Part shown: piece by piece, positions 12,914 to 49,806 of the stretch
Layout: every line of letters begins with the position of its first letter
Numbering within the stretch: the first letter of the stretch is position 1
Source of the DNA: Escherichia phage damhaus
Sequence record: NC_049827.1
Strand: one strand, 5' to 3'
DNA: 51,154 nt
Translations under genes and position numbers: made by a program
Notes under the pieces: generated by a model
What the model saw: the letters and a program-made list of their open reading frames with translations, nothing else
Told to the model about the DNA's origin: nothing
The model's database searches: none

Positions 12914-13141
12914 TTACAGACTGCAATCAGCGTTTTTAAAGTTGTCAATGCTTACCCACTGAAAATTAAACGGATAGCCAGCCTTAACAAGAGTGCGGTC
13001 GCCAACTCGTTTTACTCCAAAAATAGCAACTGAATACTGCATACCGCTATTTTCATAAATAGCCGTGCATTCACGTTTAGGCATATTTGCGCAACCAGTC
13101 ATGGTTACGGCTGCAATCAAAACGGCGATTAATTTTTTCAT
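12914..13141 (-). CDS. small outer-membrane lipoprotein, putative superinfection-exclusion (Cor/Llp-like)
   Basis: 75 aa with signal peptide and lipobox (MTGC); convergent with receptor-binding-like genes as in T1/T5-type phages. Confidence 0.55.
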   Translation of the reverse strand: MKKLIAVLIAAVTMTGCANMPKRECTAIYENSGMQYSVAIFGVKRVGDRTLVKAGYPFNFQWVSIDNFKNADCSL

Positions 13142-13196
13142 CTTGGTATCTCCTTCGTTGTTGTTGGTTGCAACTATACACGATCTTACAGCAGGC

Positions 13197-13217
13197 GTTT
13201 AGCAAAAAGTGCTATTC
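13197..13217 (-). promoter_or_regulatory. conserved intergenic box, degenerate copy
   Basis: reverse complement reads GAATAGCACTTTTTGCTAAAC; on the minus strand followed by TATAGT and the leader/RBS of the lipoprotein gene. Confidence 0.5.
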
Positions 13218-20530: not shown

Positions 20531-21463
20531 TTAGAGAAGAGATTCAGGTTTGTAAACCTTCCTCTCTATCCCTTGCCTGTAATTATCATTAATCGGCATC
20601 ATAATTTCAAGTCCTCTTTCCTCGGCAGCAATGATCGCGTCACGATCTGTGCTCTTACAGACAACTCGCATTCTTCTGTTGCCTTTATACCTGTAAGCTA
20701 CAATCTCAATGTTAGTTGCATCAAAGCAGGCCCAAACCTCCTGACCAGTTGCAAGGTGAATATGTTGCGCATCAATCCAGTCAACGCAAAGATAGATCGT
20801 CTTATCTGTGCTTCCTGTTCTCACAACCGACCCGCGCGTGTATTCCTTTGCGAGAAAAGACTGTTTACCTTCTTCATCAATGAAAAGCACATTGCACATT
20901 TCATCATCAATATCATCGGAATGTACCAGGTAACATGGTAACGCGTGAATGTATCGACCATCTTTAACGCCGCATTCATAATGGCCATCTTCAGGCGGGT
21001 ATATCCCTTCATAGGTGCTTAACGGCGTGCGATCAAATTTTAGTGTTTTTGACATAACGCGCTCGCAGCATTCATGGCTTGCCTGTTTCCCAAACGAATA
21101 ACCAGAATCACGAGATACTCGCTTATTTGCCTTGATCCTATAGTCCTGCGGAACTTTTCCAAGAAAGCGGCCCAAAATATTGATCACTTCGCTGTAAGGT
21201 TCTCCGGTTATCTTCATGATCCAACCAATTCCAGTATCGTTCCCGCACACGTTGCAGATAGCGCCGCCGTCGCCTTTTTTATCTCCAAGTTTATCCGTCC
21301 ATCTGAAGCGATCCTTTCCGCCGCAGTGGGGGCAAGATTGATGCTTGCCGTTAAAAACTTCATTTGGAAGACCGCAAATACTTTGTAGCGCCTCACGCCA
21401 TAATCCCTGCATATATGGGAGAACATCTTCCTTTTGATAAACCATAAAGTTTTCGTTGTTCAT
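20531..21463 (-). CDS. DNA primase (zinc-binding)
   Basis: Start moved to Met35 (GAGGTG RBS); CPHCGGKDRFRW zinc-ribbon motif near the N-terminus. Confidence 0.6.
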   Translation of the reverse strand: MNNENFMVYQKEDVLPYMQGLWREALQSICGLPNEVFNGKHQSCPHCGGKDRFRWTDKLGDKKGDGGAICNVCGNDTGIGWIMKITGEPYSEVINILGRFLGKVPQDYRIKANKRVSRDSGYSFGKQASHECCERVMSKTLKFDRTPLSTYEGIYPPEDGHYECGVKDGRYIHALPCYLVHSDDIDDEMCNVLFIDEEGKQSFLAKEYTRGSVVRTGSTDKTIYLCVDWIDAQHIHLATGQEVWACFDATNIEIVAYRYKGNRRMRVVCKSTDRDAIIAAEERGLEIMMPINDNYRQGIERKVYKPESLL

Positions 21464-21518
21464 ATGCACCTCAAACAAAAAAGCCTGACAGATGATAACA
21501 TCATGCCAGGCATTGTTT

Positions 21519-21992
21519 TTAGCAATTAGTGCTTTCAGGTTTATACAGGAATCCGCCAGGTTCATAATCTGACATTCTTACCACTCGCAACATTTCACGC
21601 TTATCACATCTCTTTGTGAGCGGTTTGCCATTGGAATCAAATCGCAGGTCTGGACGACAAAATGATGCGCGATAACCTTGACAGCCATACTTTTTATAAT
21701 CATTGTGCACCTTTTGAGCGCCAGCGGCTGAAATCATACCGCGAACGCGCCACTGATTTACAGTTTGCTGGCTAACGTTAAGACGTTTTGCCATTGCTGA
21801 TACACTTCCGTAATACTCAATAAGGATGTCAAGGCGCGCTTTTAGTCCGGCGCGAACTTCATCTTTTAAAACATAGTATCCTGTAGGGCGCTTGCGCTTT
21901 TTCTTATCTTTACCCCGTCGAGTTCCGTTGTTGCCATTAATTGTGCGCTTGTCAATCTTGCCAGTTGATACGGCGATCCGCTGTTCTTTCAT
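21519..21992 (-). CDS. HTH-domain DNA-binding protein (putative transcriptional regulator)
   Basis: 157 aa; predicted helix-turn-helix SVSAMAKRLNVSQQTVNQW; very basic N-terminus; divergent from helicase gene. Confidence 0.55.
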   Translation of the reverse strand: MKEQRIAVSTGKIDKRTINGNNGTRRGKDKKKRKRPTGYYVLKDEVRAGLKARLDILIEYYGSVSAMAKRLNVSQQTVNQWRVRGMISAAGAQKVHNDYKKYGCQGYRASFCRPDLRFDSNGKPLTKRCDKREMLRVVRMSDYEPGGFLYKPESTNC

Positions 21993-22081
21993 TATTCATT
22001 CTCCAATAGCATTTTTTGTTAAACGATGATTTAATGATTGTGTATTATACACGCCAAATGGCATTACTCAAAGGTTTTAGA

Positions 22082-24127
22082 ATGATTCCAAACATTGAAA
22101 AGCAAATATCAGCACTTGGTGAAGCGGTAATTAAATCCATTCAGGAGCGATTCACTGTTGGCGATATTGTGCCTTACCCTTACCAGTGCGTTGCATACGC
22201 TGAGATCGCAAAGCGTATGAAAAATTATGAGCATCCATTCTTTGTTAAAGCGTCGGTATCGGCTGGAAAAACATTGATGTTTGCAATGGTTGCTCACCAG
22301 TGCCGGAAAATGGGCTTGAAAATGATGGTCCTTGCTCGCCAGGCTGAGATTGTGGATCAGGATTCTGAAGAGATAACAAATCTTGGCGTGCCGAACTCCA
22401 TCTATTGTGCAGGACTGAAGACAAAAAGCGCATACTTTCCGATCGTTGTTGGTTCTGAGGGAACTGTAGTTAATGGACTGTTTAAAGCGCTTGGCGACTA
22501 TGTTCCTCACGTTATCGGGATTGACGAGTGTCACCAGGTGGATTGGGAAGACCTTGCCGACGCCATAGAGAAAGATGAGTCATTTTTACAAATGACGACG
22601 AAGAAAGGCGAAAAAGTACCAAATCCAGATTATGACATAACAAAGGGAAGCAGGAACAGAAATACAGAGTTCCTGATTGGTGAGGATGGCTTGCCAATGG
22701 AGGGAACAGGCCGCACGCAATACACTGTCATTATCATGGAAATGATGCGACGTTGCAGGAAAGCATACGGTCATGAACTGCGCATCTTTGGTATGACTGG
22801 ATCGGAGTTTCGCGGCGTAGTTCCAATACTGGTAGAAGATAAAAAGCAGAAAGGATTTTGGCGTGAACAGGTTACTAATATTGACACCAACTACCTGATC
22901 AAGTTCGGTTCTGTTGTTCCGACTAATTTTGGCGACGTTGGCGATCTTGGGTATGACCTTTCAGAGTTTGAGGCATCCAGTGAGGATGGCGTTGCAGACT
23001 TTGACGCTAAAACGCTTCGTAGGATGGAACAAAAAATTCATGAAGAAGCGACCATGACAAAGCGCATCATGGCGAAAGTGCACGAGATCTGTAAAAACCG
23101 TAACGGTGTACTTGTGACATGTGCAGGCGAAAGGCACTGTAAAGAGGCAGCGGCAGCATTGCCGCCTGGAACGACTTACAGGATCATTACTGGTAAGACT
23201 GGCGATAACCAGCGCAAGGAGTGGTTGAAAGAAGCATACGAGGGAAAGGTTAAATACATCTTCCAGGTGCAGGCGCTAACTACTGGCGTTAACGTGCCGT
23301 TTTGGGATACGTCTGTTATTCTGCGTAAGATTGGATCTCTTACGTTGCTGATTCAGCTTTTAGGTCGCGGAATGCGACTACTTAAGAAGTGGCATAAGGA
23401 GCAAGGATTCCAGAAGGATGATCATCTAGTCATGGATTTTTCAGGAACGATGGACGAGCTAGGGGAGCTTTATTTTGATCCGATACTGGAACAGGCGCAG
23501 CACCAGAAGCGATTTAGGAACGGTAAAGATCCGAAGCCTTGTCCTGTTTGCGGAACTCTTAACAGCTATTATGCTCGTCGTTGTATGAACGTAGATGAAA
23601 ACGGCAACAGATGCGAGTGGTTCTTTAAATTCAGGACATGTGATGATCAGATTGACCCGCGCACTAAAAAGATTATTCATCGCGGTTGCGGAACGAAGAA
23701 TGATATTGCGGCCAGGGTATGCAGACATTGCGACATGTCATTGATTGACCCTAACGAGAAGTTAAGCGGAAAGCACTACACAAAAAACGACTGGTTCCAG
23801 GTGCAATCTTTCGCGGTTGACATGACGAAAAACCAGAAAGGGATAATATTTAATTATGAGCTTTCCGATGGCATAGATACTTTCAAGGCGAGAGAGATAT
23901 TTTTCCCTGAATCTGAAAGCCAAATTTGTCGCGCAAAATGGCGAAGCGTTGCTCTTAAGCACATACCAGATCGCCGTGTCGCTGGCATGGTCGCGAGCTA
24001 TCGTAATGCACGTAAAATCATGCAATATGTGAATCACATTATGCCACCATCGCGTGTGACTCACCGCAAGACGAGCAAGGGCGAAGATAATTTGTATAAG
24101 AAGGAATTTAATTATGGCAATGACTGA
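22082..24127 (+). CDS. SF2 DNA helicase with C-terminal zinc-finger region
   Basis: Walker A (SAGKT) and DECH box (GIDECHQ); C-terminal CxxC clusters; start at Met23. Confidence 0.75.
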   Translation: MIPNIEKQISALGEAVIKSIQERFTVGDIVPYPYQCVAYAEIAKRMKNYEHPFFVKASVSAGKTLMFAMVAHQCRKMGLKMMVLARQAEIVDQDSEEITNLGVPNSIYCAGLKTKSAYFPIVVGSEGTVVNGLFKALGDYVPHVIGIDECHQVDWEDLADAIEKDESFLQMTTKKGEKVPNPDYDITKGSRNRNTEFLIGEDGLPMEGTGRTQYTVIIMEMMRRCRKAYGHELRIFGMTGSEFRGVVPILVEDKKQKGFWREQVTNIDTNYLIKFGSVVPTNFGDVGDLGYDLSEFEASSEDGVADFDAKTLRRMEQKIHEEATMTKRIMAKVHEICKNRNGVLVTCAGERHCKEAAAALPPGTTYRIITGKTGDNQRKEWLKEAYEGKVKYIFQVQALTTGVNVPFWDTSVILRKIGSLTLLIQLLGRGMRLLKKWHKEQGFQKDDHLVMDFSGTMDELGELYFDPILEQAQHQKRFRNGKDPKPCPVCGTLNSYYARRCMNVDENGNRCEWFFKFRTCDDQIDPRTKKIIHRGCGTKNDIAARVCRHCDMSLIDPNEKLSGKHYTKNDWFQVQSFAVDMTKNQKGIIFNYELSDGIDTFKAREIFFPESESQICRAKWRSVALKHIPDRRVAGMVASYRNARKIMQYVNHIMPPSRVTHRKTSKGEDNLYKKEFNYGND

Positions 24128-24549: not shown

Positions 24550-24607
24550 AGGCGCGAAGGATTGCGCCATAATAACGCCAGTTCAACAAGCAACAGGTAA
24601 TTAAGAA

Positions 24608-25569: not shown

Positions 25570-25625
25570 GCCCGGCCTTGTGTCGGGCATAATTATTTCA
25601 TCAAAACGAACAAGAGGAAAACAAA

Positions 25626-28732: not shown

Positions 28733-28793
28733 GATGTTTTCCTTCTGGTCGTTTCGTCTCGATGAAACAAATATACCCGATACGAGATCGGGT

Positions 28794-31581: not shown

Positions 31582-31636
31582 CGTTTATTTCTCCTTTCGT
31601 TTCGGTGAAGTGATTATGCCAGGATTTTACACCTGG

Positions 31637-33426: not shown

Positions 33427-33665
33427 TAGACGATCTCCAAATTCTCGATCTTGTTATTGCCAATTGCAGAATGAACGCAACGCTCTTGCGTCTCCTTGTC
33501 GCCATGAACATCAATATAATACCCTGGTATAACAGTAAAAAACCAATTGCCGCGCCAGAAGAAATAAAGGCCGTGCTTGCTTCCTTTTGCGCATTTATTC
33601 GCATTTTTAGGTATTGGAAGTCCGTGGACTCGCCGCAATTCTACATTCTTGTTAAAATTTGGCAT
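33426..33665 (-). CDS. hypothetical protein
   Basis: 79-aa ORF with GGAGG RBS; several Cys/His. Confidence 0.55.
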   Translation of the reverse strand: MPNFNKNVELRRVHGLPIPKNANKCAKGSKHGLYFFWRGNWFFTVIPGYYIDVHGDKETQERCVHSAIGNNKIENLEIV

Positions 33666-33859
33666 TATACAACCTCCATAAAAGTATTGAATCCACGCAG
33701 TTTGAAAGCATTGCCGTGTTTAACAACGTTCCATGTCAGACCGGAGTGATACGCAACCATATCCTCAAGATCAATTGTGATGATAGCGCCTTTCTTAAAG
33801 ATTCCTTTCTCGTGAGTGGTGTCGCGCTGCACAACTTTAACATCAACCTGTGTTTCCAT
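33665..33859 (-). CDS. hypothetical protein
   Basis: 64-aa ORF with GAGGA RBS, preceded by box, hairpin and conserved leader. Confidence 0.5.
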   Translation of the reverse strand: METQVDVKVVQRDTTHEKGIFKKGAIITIDLEDMVAYHSGLTWNVVKHGNAFKLRGFNTFMEVV

Positions 33860-34729: not shown

Positions 34730-34790
34730 TGCTATCTCCTGATTGGTATCTCGTTTCGATGAGATAACTATACCAGGTTATTCCGATCTT

Positions 34791-34812
34791 GTTTTAACAA
34801 AAAGTGCTATTT
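34791..34812 (-). promoter_or_regulatory. conserved intergenic box copy at head of minus-strand block
   Basis: minus strand AAATAGCACTTTTTGTTAAAAC followed by TATAGT and the CATCGAAACGAGAT leader. Confidence 0.7.
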
Positions 34813-35345
34813 CTCAACTGGCGATTATTCCATCTATTCCATTAATCAGGAATAACAGGAATAACTCATTCGAGATCACCTGGATTGTGAGATCTTGAGT
34901 TTGATCAATTTTAATCAGGTGATTAACTTTTTGTGTGGAGGGGATAGAGAAACGCGGTCCTCTTGCGTCCTTTCCGGCAATCCTGGCGCGCGCATCTGTT
35001 ATCTTCTGTTATCGCTGTTATGCGTGTTATTCCGGCGTGGAATCGCATAACAAAAAATAACAAGAGAAATCCATATAACATACTAAAAAATAAGGATTAT
35101 TTATTTATATGTATCTATAAATTACTATCTGTTGTGCGTGTTATGTGGTCATATTGATGCCTGATGTATTTTTGGTGATTGTATGTGGTTGTGTGTTGGC
35201 AGGTATGTATATATGGGGCGGTGGCGTATCCGCGCATTTTTAGATAACACGCAAAAACAACATTGATTTATAAGAAAAAAAACACAAATCCTGTTGTGTT
35301 CTGAAAAGACAACATAGGAAAACCGCCAATAACAATAAAAAACAG

Positions 35346-35375
35346 TTGACACACCAGGTGACGGTAAATGATAAT
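35346..35375 (+). promoter_or_regulatory. sigma70 promoter (TTGACA-N18-GATAAT)
   Basis: consensus -35 and near-consensus -10 about 30 nt upstream of the first plus-strand early gene. Confidence 0.65.
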
Positions 35376-35405
35376 GCAGCCACTGAATCACGAGGGGGAT
35401 AAAGC

Positions 35406-35876
35406 ATGAGTGAATCTGTATTTACAAATGAGCTTCGCAAGGTTGCAATTGCTCTAGCCACTGGAGTGCATGAATCTATCCAGATACCTGAAAGATGGGT
35501 AAGGCAGCACCTGGAGGGCAAGAAGTCAGCCAGCAACGCCGGATCATATCTGCGTCAGATTATGGGGCGCGTTCCAGAAGTGGCGGAGAAGGGGAGAGTT
35601 TCAGTCTCAAAGAAACCTTACGGCCCTGATAGCGAATATTTCGGAGAAAATTACTTTGATGTGGCGATTGTTAGTGCTCCGAATCGCAGGGTGTACAACA
35701 AGGCCGCGCTTGAGAAGGCTGTAGCGAAAGCAAAACGCCAGGTTGCTGAGTCGATGCTTAAAGTCTCACCAAACCTAGCGAACTACTCGCCAGATGAATA
35801 TGAAACACTTGCTAAGGCGATCGCAGACTTTCACGCGATCATTAAAGAAACATATCTTAACGATGAGGATCAATAA
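35406..35876 (+). CDS. hypothetical protein (first plus-strand early gene)
   Basis: 156-aa ORF with GAGGGGGA RBS. Confidence 0.6.
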   Translation: MSESVFTNELRKVAIALATGVHESIQIPERWVRQHLEGKKSASNAGSYLRQIMGRVPEVAEKGRVSVSKKPYGPDSEYFGENYFDVAIVSAPNRRVYNKAALEKAVAKAKRQVAESMLKVSPNLANYSPDEYETLAKAIADFHAIIKETYLNDEDQ

Positions 35877-35877
35877 A

Positions 35878-36126
35878 ATGAGCAAACTTACTCTTGATGA
35901 ACTGATGGAAAAAATTGATGAAGTGGGCTTTAACAAACTGGTTGATTTCCACTTGACCGCATGTGAAATCACCGCGCAGGAGTTTAGCGAAATGCTATCT
36001 GATGCGAGCGAGATTTACACAAGCCTATGCGGAAGAGAAATCAAAGTCATTGAAATTGAAATGCCTGGAGATCCGGTATTTGCAAGGCTTGTGGCTGCAT
36101 TCGATGAGGAGAATGTTGGACTCTGA
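35878..36126 (+). CDS. hypothetical acidic protein
   Basis: Start at Met29 of track ORF (GAGGA RBS); 82 aa. Confidence 0.5.
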   Translation: MSKLTLDELMEKIDEVGFNKLVDFHLTACEITAQEFSEMLSDASEIYTSLCGREIKVIEIEMPGDPVFARLVAAFDEENVGL

Positions 36127-36152: not shown

Positions 36153-36209
36153 GCCAGGCGCAAAGCCTGGAATAATAGCCTCATCGAAACGAGATTGAGG
36201 AAAACAAAA

Positions 36210-38078: not shown

Positions 38079-38614
38079 AAAAATACGAATTTGAACTTTG
38101 GGGAAGCAAATACCATTTTTCCACTAGCAAGCCGATTGTTATTGTTGACCTTGACGGCACGTTATCAGATGGAACGCACCGCTTGCACCTGCTGCCGACA
38201 GAAGATTTGCACCTTACAGAAAGCTGGTCTGAGTTCAACAAAGCGGCTGTTGGCGATTCGCCGATTAAGAGCACGGTTTCAGTGGTTAACGGATTGTGGA
38301 TGTCAGGATTTGCCATCGTTATCCTGACAGGGCGCAGCGATGAGGTGATGGCTGACACCTGCGACTGGTTAAATTATAACGGCATCAAGTACGACGCGTT
38401 AATCATGCGCCGAAAGGAAGATAACCGAAAAGACACGATCATCAAAGAGGAAGTCTTGCGAGCTATCGGACTGGAAAACATTGTGTGCGCTTTTGATGAT
38501 TCGCCGAACGTGGTTAAGCACTTCCGCAGCCTGGGAATCACAACCTATCAGGTCACGGAATACGAAAAGCCACATAATCACATCCAATCGCACGGCGTGG
38601 ATGAATTAAAATAG
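38075..38614 (+). CDS. HAD-superfamily phosphatase (polynucleotide 3'-phosphatase-like)
   Basis: DLDGTL (DxDxT) motif near the N-terminus; start at Met5 overlapping the upstream stop. Confidence 0.6.
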   Translation: MKKYEFELWGSKYHFSTSKPIVIVDLDGTLSDGTHRLHLLPTEDLHLTESWSEFNKAAVGDSPIKSTVSVVNGLWMSGFAIVILTGRSDEVMADTCDWLNYNGIKYDALIMRRKEDNRKDTIIKEEVLRAIGLENIVCAFDDSPNVVKHFRSLGITTYQVTEYEKPHNHIQSHGVDELK

Positions 38615-38685: not shown

Positions 38686-38985
38686 ATGTTAGTTCGTAAT
38701 GCGATTTATAAATTCACCAACGAGATGGGAGTTCACCTTTACCACGTAAACCATCAAGGCCACACATCAATTGCGATGTATCGCGACGCTCGCGGGAAGT
38801 GCAAACCTTCTCTGCGTGGCAGAATTTCGCCTGCGTTCTTCATGTTCAGATGGTATGCAACAGAACAAAGCAACCATAACCATTGGAATAAAGTATTGGT
38901 TGCAGGAGGCCGAATTGTTGCCAGCCACGTAGTCGATCCGCGCAAACTAACCAGCCGCCAGCTTCGCAAAATGGCGCGCAAGTGA
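38686..38985 (+). CDS. hypothetical protein
   Basis: 99-aa ORF after the conserved AAAAAGGAAAACATC leader. Confidence 0.5.
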   Translation: MLVRNAIYKFTNEMGVHLYHVNHQGHTSIAMYRDARGKCKPSLRGRISPAFFMFRWYATEQSNHNHWNKVLVAGGRIVASHVVDPRKLTSRQLRKMARK

Positions 38986-39001
38986 TAGAGGAGAAGAACA
39001 A

Positions 39002-39988: not shown

Positions 39989-40042
39989 CGGGGCGCAATG
40001 CCTCGCTATAATGCAAACACCAATCAACGAGAGGAAATCATC

Positions 40043-41873: not shown

Positions 41874-42184
41874 TTTACATTCACTACTACCAGATCGGGA
41901 CAAACGAAAACAAGCAGGAGCGCAGAGCAATTTGTGACACGCTCGACGATGCGAAAGCACAGCAACGCGTTTTGGGTGGTGTAATTCAGGCTTTTGAGCC
42001 AGTGGAAGATATAGAGCACCGAGAGCATTTGAAAGAGATTGTTGTTGATGAAATTTCATCACTAATCGACGACATGACAAATCACGGGCCTGGTTCTCCG
42101 TGGGAAGAAGCCGGATCGACGGAGTGGGATTGCGCTAAAGTTGCAACGCTTAACAACTTTCGTGAGTTGCTCGACGATTTTTAA
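41870..42184 (+). CDS. small acidic protein
   Basis: Start at Met14 overlapping the upstream stop; 104 aa, D/E-rich. Confidence 0.5.
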   Translation: MIYIHYYQIGTNENKQERRAICDTLDDAKAQQRVLGGVIQAFEPVEDIEHREHLKEIVVDEISSLIDDMTNHGPGSPWEEAGSTEWDCAKVATLNNFRELLDDF

Positions 42185-49769: not shown

Positions 49770-49787
49770 CACAAAATTATGTTGCAC

Positions 49788-49806
49788 GTTTAACAAAAAA
49801 TGCTAT
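49788..49806 (-). promoter_or_regulatory. conserved intergenic box, inverted degenerate copy (late region)
   Basis: GTTTAACAAAAAATGCTAT on + strand upstream of the major capsid gene, followed by a hairpin and RBS. Confidence 0.5.

Follow-up and report, generated by a model that had tools for sequence, protein, structure and literature searches.

A Cro-type, probably early protein at a divergent promoter junction and marbox-like promoters in T1-like phages

Escherichia phage damhaus (NC_049827.1) encodes on its minus strand, at positions 21519–21992, a helix-turn-helix (HTH) protein whose gene diverges from a helicase gene, and a conserved 20-bp box recurs throughout its genome. The locus raises the question of which DNA this protein reads. 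An earlier reading of the 51,154-nucleotide stretch (the window, at its full length), made from the letters alone and referred to here as the sequence-only reading, had named the protein a first candidate for recognizing either the box or the iterons of the phage. The part of this claim that describes an HTH-type DNA-binding regulator at a divergent junction stands, but the proposal that it reads the box is not supported: the box matches the marbox to which MarA, SoxS and Rob of the host bind, the protein's recognition helix is variable, and its HTH is single. The HTH protein is therefore probably not the reader of the genome-wide box. The function that we tentatively prefer, with somewhat less than even confidence, is that of a Cro-like early protein whose operator differs between lineages and lies where its own promoter overlaps the divergent helicase promoter.

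The protein and its variable recognition helix

The open reading frame (ORF) at 21519–21992 (minus strand, 157 residues, ATG start) is a real, conserved gene of the T1 gp23/Rtp52 family, which matches the ‘transcriptional regulator’ phrog_2856 over residues 4–144 with an E value of 3.3e-78. It is preceded, 7 nt before the ATG, by the Shine-Dalgarno sequence GGAGA (22000–22004, minus strand, read from the sequence). In a collection of 5.8 billion proteins the family is represented by 118 homologues with 46–99% identity, almost all on phage contigs of ca. 50 kb, and a tblastn search with the protein returned 841 phage records, 804 of them at a coverage of at least 80%. A protein of at least 99% identity is encoded in 59 phage records; among those listed, for example, that of phage JakobBernoulli is 100% identical. 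As a feature the gene is already known, since it is annotated as ‘putative transcriptional regulator’ in the public records of hundreds of T1-like phages; it appears as gp63 in Escherichia phage grams, ST23 in T1, Rtp52 in Rtp and gp66 in Klebsiella phage 1513. The window itself belongs to a T1-like phage (Drexlerviridae, Tempevirinae, Hanrivervirus), and the 3.7-kb stretch around the gene shares 98% identity with grams and 95–97% with many other Hanrivervirus phages. Several records labelled ‘Campylobacter phage’ (MG065638, MG065680 and others) likewise encode a protein 100% identical to that of this coliphage, so that host labels in the collection have to be considered unreliable.

The position of the gene is constant in grams, T1, Rtp, 1513, Motto and Vc1, where it lies upstream of the primase gene on the same strand and is divergent from the gene of a superfamily 2 (SF2) helicase. 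In grams, the tail fibre, primase and ‘transcriptional regulator’ genes are annotated on one strand and the helicase, VRR-NUC, Dam methylase, small ORFs, phosphoesterase and lysis genes on the other. Correspondingly, the window contains the primase gene (Zn-ribbon and Toprim; 20531–21462, minus strand, its true start being 21462 as annotated in grams) directly downstream of the HTH gene, and the helicase gene (22082–24127, plus strand) as the first of a helicase/VRR-NUC/Dam unit on its other side. The divergent junction with a helicase operon described in the sequence-only reading was thereby confirmed, as were the 157-residue HTH protein on the minus strand (by phrog_2856, Pfam, AlphaFold2 and the homologues) and its very basic N-terminus, as residues 1–38 contain 14 Lys/Arg and 3 Asp/Glu. 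The same reading regarded this protein and an HTH-phosphoesterase as the only obvious DNA-binding regulators, which holds as far as tested: a scan of ca. 29 other early ORFs, a subset of those in the window, found no Pfam DNA-binding domain.

The Pfam matches of the protein, YdaS_toxin (29.8 bits versus a cut-off of 30.0) and P22_Cro (25.2 versus 30.2), both extend over residues 55–89 and lie below the curated cut-offs; precomputed matches to PF14549 and PF15943 are present in near-identical homologues, and NCBIfam gave a sub-threshold match to the ‘carph-isopro’ HTH only. The AlphaFold2 model, calculated with 44 homologues as input, has a mean predicted local distance difference test (pLDDT) score of 85.8 and exceeds 93 over residues 40–140. 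It predicts a disordered segment (residues 1–38), helices at 44–61, 64–71, 75–84 and 89–101, and a compact, confident C-terminal part up to about residue 145. A Foldseek search of the Protein Data Bank (PDB) with the model identified the all-alpha Cro proteins of Xfaso1 (3bd1; template modelling (TM) score 0.73 on the target) and N15 (6on0) as best matches, with a probability of 1.00 and TM scores of 0.64–0.73 on the target for the Cro proteins, and among the viral models of BFVD only family members and XRE/YdaS proteins were found. An AraC/MarA fold was not matched in the Foldseek PDB search, nor was there an AraC-type Pfam match. In a profile search of 1.84 billion representatives the full-length architecture occurred in only ca. 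17 clusters, all of the Drexlerviridae type, beyond which generic 80-residue Cro/YdaS proteins follow; informative domain fusions were not found in this search. The protein is therefore a Cro-type HTH protein to which, specifically in Drexlerviridae, a conserved basic arm and C-terminal domain have been added. It shares the HTH fold with the all-alpha Cro proteins (P22, N15, Xfaso1) and with YdaS of the Rac prophage but is twice their size, the 40-residue basic arm and the 55-residue C-terminal domain having no counterpart there.

Conservation within the family, as derived from an alignment of 44 sequences, differs between the segments of the protein. The most conserved segment is the predicted disordered basic arm DKRTINGNNGTRRGKDKKKRKRPTG (codons for residues 12–38; 21879–21959, minus strand), with a mean column identity of 0.80 and the consensus DKRTxNGNNGTRRGKDKKxRKR; the GMIS motif is also among the best conserved parts, and the C-terminal domain reaches 0.74. 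In contrast, the segment of helix 2, turn and helix 3 (recognition helix QQTVNQWRVR; codons for residues 64–84; 21741–21803, minus strand) is the least conserved structured one, with a mean column identity of 0.49 for helix 2 and 0.53 for the recognition helix, and with 14 residue types at position 75 and 12 at position 79. Trp81, Arg84 and the motif Gly85-Met-Ile-Ser are conserved, as in DNA-binding Cro/YdaS proteins. More than 20 distinct recognition helices were counted across 84 loci, among them SQQTVNQW in the window, SIQVVQQW in Webervirus, TPQAVEEW in Rtp, SNQTVQGW in T1, and furthermore NLKTVWGW, TTKVVTGW and SHATLYEW. The helix of Motto and Vc1 is PYVTVRNAY.

The genome-wide box and its relation to the marbox

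The box has the form ATAGCACTTTTTGTTAAAAC, with ATAGCACGAATTGCTAAAAC as a second common form, and fits the published marbox consensus 5'-gcannwwntgnnaaa-3' (PMC12052159) at all 10 specified positions. Exact matches to gcannwwntgnnaaa occur 20 times in the window compared with 1.88 ± 1.32 expected from shuffled sequences, and 19 of the 20 are copies of the box, with cores starting at 2377, 13198, 21518, 22009, 24533, 25553, 28796, 30963, 31639, 33026, 33917, 34793, 36136, 36600, 37605, 38614, 39972, 41316 and 49789. Boxes are also present in T1 (L002), Rtp (L003), Klebsiella 1513 (L004), Motto (L136) and Vc1 (L137), and in each of the Drexlerviridae lineages that were checked, box promoters precede the majority of early, replication and accessory genes. 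The copy at 38614 (GCACTTTTTGCAAAA) is identical to a RamA/SoxS site found in Salmonella by chromatin immunoprecipitation sequencing (PMC10268841).

The arrangement of the promoters is equally uniform. The box is always oriented with the downstream gene and is followed by 17–18 nt, a TATAAT-like hexamer, a leader, a Shine-Dalgarno sequence and the ATG, while a −35 hexamer is found at none of the box promoters. Measured from the 20-mer to the −10 hexamer, the gap amounts to 17–19 nt in 63 of the 69 matches in the window, T1, Rtp and Klebsiella 1513, which represent four genera or subfamilies, and to exactly 18 nt in 54. With the −10 hexamer placed at −12 to −7 (the transcription start being a predicted one), the G of GCAC falls on −47 and the AAA on −35 to −33. 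The cryo-electron microscopy structure of Rob and RNA polymerase on the class II promoter micF revealed contacts to −47G and −45A (A site) and to −38G, −37T, −35 and −34 (B site) (PMC9178005), and RamA was placed at about −41 on micF, whose site is written CACT-7N-AAA (PMC8811837); in the same notation the phage box reads CACT-TTTTGTT-AAA. In class II promoters generally, the marbox is oriented forward and lies over the −35 region without a recognizable −35 hexamer (PMC12052159, PMC10268841). The phage boxes share with the class II promoters micF, lpxC P2 and lpxL P1 the consensus GCAnnWWnTGnnAAA, the forward orientation, a centre at about −41 and the lack of a −35 hexamer. They differ from chromosomal marboxes in being far closer to the consensus and to each other, in extending to a 20-mer ATAGCAC...TAAAAC, and in the terminator hairpin that often occupies the spacer between box and −10 hexamer.

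Judged from these positional features, the box promoters look like a class II MarA/SoxS/Rob architecture. The conservation of the box is moreover asymmetric (A1 0.94, T2 0.90, A3 0.97, GCAC, TTG, TAAA, A19 and C20), which predicts a monomeric reader with two HTH motifs rather than a symmetric dimer. The phages themselves do not appear to supply one, as a search of the ORFs of four Drexlerviridae genomes with a profile of MarA, SoxS and Rob (the MarA query checked against 1bl0) revealed no MarA-like protein, with a best E value of 0.11. The most economical reading of the box would be the binding of a host factor: MarA, SoxS or Rob of the host, or RamA in Klebsiella and Salmonella, would bind the box and recruit RNA polymerase to the ca. 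19 phage promoters devoid of a −35 hexamer. In the papers searched, a link between T1-like phages and marboxes or the Mar/Sox/Rob regulators is not made, and the box and the function of the HTH protein are likewise not described there; the published T1-like genome papers contain generic sigma-70 promoter predictions only.

The box consensus is identical across ca. 20 helix variants, and the box is unchanged in T1, Rtp, Klebsiella 1513, Motto, Vc1 and ca. 20 metagenomic lineages, although nearly all of them have a different recognition helix. A helix that changes at nearly every exposed position while its 20-bp target remains fixed is not expected to be the sequence-specific reader of that target.

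The divergent promoters and the rival readings

The HTH gene itself is served by a different type of promoter. In the intergenic region (21993–22081) that separates the HTH gene from the start codon of the helicase gene at 22082, a predicted sigma-70 promoter on the minus strand at 22044–22071 consists of TTGAGT (22071–22066), a spacer of 16 nt and TATAAT (22049–22044) and agrees with the consensus at 10 of 12 positions. Equivalents read by eye are TTGTCA-16-TATAAT in Klebsiella 1513 and TTGAAT-17-TATAAT in T1, and none of the lineages examined has a box in its HTH gene promoter, which is consensus-like throughout. The helicase promoter on the plus strand is composed of the degenerate marbox-type box ATAGCATTTTTTGTTAAACG (22006–22025) and, 17 nt after it, the −10 hexamer TATTAT (22043–22048), which overlaps the −10 hexamer of the HTH promoter on the opposite strand by five of six bases. 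Owing to this overlap two polymerases should exclude each other. The HTH transcript, with a predicted start near 22037, reads through the helicase box, so that any factor bound to the box would sit in the 5' leader region of this transcript. Expression of the HTH gene is thus probably coupled to the occupancy of the box, a point in favour of the sequence-only reading.

Both −10 hexamers are covered by a perfect 13-bp palindrome, GTGTAT-t-ATACAC (GTGTATtATACAC; 22040–22052), which occurs once in the 51-kb window. Around the twin −10 hexamers, many lineages show more dyad symmetry than the TAT/ATA enforced by the promoters, the outer arms being lineage-specific, and this extended symmetry weakly supports an operator. 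Following the reading that we prefer, the HTH gene would be transcribed immediately after infection by the host RNA polymerase in its unmodified form, and the protein would bind as a dimer to a lineage-specific operator, for which the palindrome is the best candidate here; bound over both −10 hexamers, it would repress its own gene and control transcription of the helicase gene, as does Cro at a divergent promoter pair. Like lambdoid Cro, the protein is small, early and encoded at a divergent promoter junction, and its recognition helix diversifies between relatives as the lambdoid immunity specificities do. Unlike lambdoid Cro, it occurs in strictly lytic phages, has no repressor partner, and its gene is coupled to the primase gene.

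Several observations weigh against this proposal of a Cro-like protein next to promoters read by host factors. The operator assignment depends on a single candidate palindrome that is partly forced by the two overlapping −10 hexamers. Only a half-palindrome is present at the twin −10 hexamers of T1, and the left arm GTGTAT is found again in lineages whose helices differ, an observation that a promoter feature would explain as well as an operator would. The arm and the C-terminal domain, the most conserved parts of the protein, are not explained by a simple Cro model and point to a conserved partner. On the side of the box, a screen of the Keio collection with the T1-like phage LL5 does not mention rob, marA or soxS, a weak argument since the three are redundant. 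Moreover, the same boxes are retained in Vc1 and Motto, which were deposited as phages of Vibrio cholerae and Pseudomonas aeruginosa, respectively. These hosts may lack Mar/Sox/Rob, and if they do, a phage-encoded reader of the box would be needed, for which the HTH protein would again become a candidate. Growth on P. aeruginosa isolates is described in the Motto paper; on the other hand, host labels in the collection are unreliable, as noted above, and both Motto and Vc1 have a G+C content of 45%.

The persistence of the boxes in these phages also speaks for the view that the HTH protein is a phage-encoded activator of the box promoters, made first from its own sigma-70 promoter in the manner of T4 MotA. 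This view gains from the fact that the HTH gene promoter is box-free, in contrast to at least 19 others with a box, from the protein being the only universally conserved one with a recognized regulator-type HTH, no MarA-like protein being encoded and no other DNA-binding domain having been found in ca. 29 early ORFs, and from the box variant TAGCAcgaatTGCTA, whose 5-bp dyad symmetry would suit a dimer. As in the T4 case, many phage promoters possess a good −10 hexamer, no −35 hexamer and a conserved box in its place. However, MotA is folded differently and depends on the co-factor AsiA, the box of the T1-like phages equals a host transcription-factor site, and the DNA-reading helix of the candidate is variable, being PYVTVRNAY in Motto and Vc1 but SQQTVNQWR in the window while the box is invariant. 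An asymmetric box (ATA-GCAC ... TAAAAC) that matches the host marbox in the right orientation and at the right distance would hardly arise by chance if its reader were an unrelated factor, and a Cro fold with one HTH is not the dual HTH of MarA and Rob. We therefore consider this view very unlikely. A special version, in which a single-HTH Cro-fold protein mimics the specificity of MarA/SoxS/Rob by means of its conserved basic arm and C-terminal domain and not by its variable helix, appears highly improbable to us; if true, T1-like phages could use marbox-type promoters whatever the host, also in Vibrio and Pseudomonas, which may lack these regulators.

The conserved arm and C-terminal domain also feature in two further explanations. 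The protein might be an origin-binding initiator whose variable helix binds the TGTTAT/ATAACA iterons on both sides of the AT-rich core at ca. 34826–35340, while the arm and the C-terminal domain recruit the neighbouring primase and helicase. The gap between the divergent early arms (34812–35405) contains at least 11 copies of TGTTAT/ATAACA flanking an AT-rich core, four of them as tandem iterons at 9–10-bp spacing (34996–35033), and the layout of iterons, AT-rich core and iterons recurs at the same relative positions in other lineages with other repeat flavours (ATAACA in the window, GAAACA in L092 and 1513, GATTAAC in T1, ATCCTCCG in L130). Points in favour of an initiator are this conserved architecture with lineage-specific flavours, the HTH gene being flanked in all lineages by those of primase and helicase, and the combination of a variable helix with conserved flanking domains, which would be expected of such a protein; likewise, L087 has the HTH protein of the window and keeps several ATAACA repeats in an otherwise replaced origin segment, while carrying the other DUF7174 type. 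One independent contrast, a natural swap, leans the other way. L126 and L089 are 96% identical over 15 kb and have HTH proteins with two differing residues, both outside the HTH, yet their iterons are of different flavours (ATAACA, seven copies, versus GAAAAC/GAACA), and only the adjacent DUF7174 gene is swapped along with them. This contrast is blunted by the AACA core common to all flavours, which makes the test not a clean one. Shared ancestry would explain lineage-specific repeats next to a lineage-specific helix equally well, and the iterons are 12.8 kb away from the HTH gene. Furthermore, in T1 the iteron region coincides with the genome ends and the terminal repeat, so that it could be an origin, a packaging site or both, and the repeats could serve packaging. 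Taken together, the link between the HTH protein and the iterons leans negative, and we regard the initiator function as unlikely.

The protein might instead work mainly through protein contacts, the arm and the C-terminal domain binding a conserved partner (RNA polymerase, host Rob/MarA, or phage primase or helicase) and the HTH providing general DNA affinity. The far better conservation of the arm (0.80) and the C-terminal domain (0.74) than of the HTH (ca. 0.5), the predicted disorder of the arm, which is typical of a partner-binding peptide, and the confinement of the full-length family to Drexlerviridae are in line with this explanation. The partner is, however, so far hypothetical, and the conservation of Trp81, Arg84 and Gly85-Met-Ile-Ser corresponds to that in DNA-binding Cro/YdaS proteins. 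Basic disordered arms can also wrap DNA, as does that of lambda repressor. On this balance, protein contacts as the main function seem quite unlikely to us.

Two other potential iteron readers were considered. TerS is identical in L126 and L089 despite their different flavours and is thus no better than the HTH protein. The DUF7174 protein (phrog_4841), encoded by the first rightward early gene (35406–35876, plus strand; 4445–4903 in L126, 1961–2398 in L089), is a candidate iteron-binding protein that fits the L126/L089 swap but not the pair of the window and L087. A k-mer comparison had suggested different iterons within one helix group; on inspection the sequences turned out to be the same GAAAC-type repeats. 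A quartet TATTCC-TATTCC/GGAATA-GGAATA adjoins the leftward box in 34812–35405 and is conserved in T1 and 1513.

Nested elements and implications

At its other end, the HTH gene merges with the promoter of the primase gene. The HTH ORF ends within the marbox-type primase box AAAGCACTAATTGCTAAAAA (21516–21535, minus strand), which takes in its final five codons and its stop codon, and the tail ESTNC of the protein is consequently encoded by the box, which explains why the tails STNC, STNS and STDC recur in homologues whose tails are otherwise unrelated. After the HTH stop codon, a hairpin GCCTGGCA..TGTCAGGC followed by a T-run (21477–21511, minus strand) holds the primase −10 hexamer TATCAT (21497–21492) in its loop. 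The equivalent hairpin is annotated as a terminator in the T1 record (35930–35971), and by its sequence the element is a composite of terminator and promoter.

A related design is seen at other box promoters, where the 18-nt spacer between box and −10 hexamer often forms a G+C-rich hairpin with varying sequence and preserved pairing. Examples in the window are found at 24550–24568, 25570–25588 and 36153–36170 and, on the minus strand, at 28776–28793 and 31619–31636. In T1 (L002) the spacer hairpins at 38973–39001, 39998–40024 and 41980–42007 are annotated as rho-independent terminators, which implies that, within ca. 45 bp, the promoter of one unit is nested with the terminator of the preceding unit. 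Most box-driven transcripts furthermore carry a conserved leader tCATCGAAACGA before the Shine-Dalgarno sequence, ca. 8–30 nt after the −10 hexamer (e.g. 25596–25610, 36179–36193 and, on the minus strand, 34745–34760), which is also present in T1, 1513, Motto and Vc1. By its position it could be an initial transcribed sequence or an element of translation or stability.

Two box promoters lie antisense inside the structural gene block (2375–2394 and 49787–49806, both minus strand) and are conserved in T1 (L002; 15067 and 18831, minus strand); the one at 2375 is followed ca. 60 nt downstream by a bidirectional terminator and may produce a short antisense RNA. The box promoter at 13196–13215 (minus strand) precedes a 75-residue ORF (12914–13141, minus strand) whose start MKKLIAVLIAAV resembles a lipoprotein signal and which, by its position, is a Cor-like superinfection-exclusion gene. 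A 64-residue early protein (33665–33859, minus strand) matches the Pfam family PF25180, ‘Phage antiviral trigger protein Gp54’, with an E value of 1.5e-37.

The gene-expression programme of T1 is poorly known, and knowledge of the target of the HTH protein would fill a gap in it. The marbox-type promoters, a by-product of testing the idea of a box-reading HTH protein, are the more consequential outcome. If the proposed binding of host factors to the box is true, the growth of these very common enteric phages would be wired to the stress and antibiotic-resistance regulators of their hosts, with bile-activated Rob, salicylate- or antibiotic-induced MarA and oxidative-stress SoxS as inputs, and an altered phage susceptibility would be predicted for mar-type resistant mutants.

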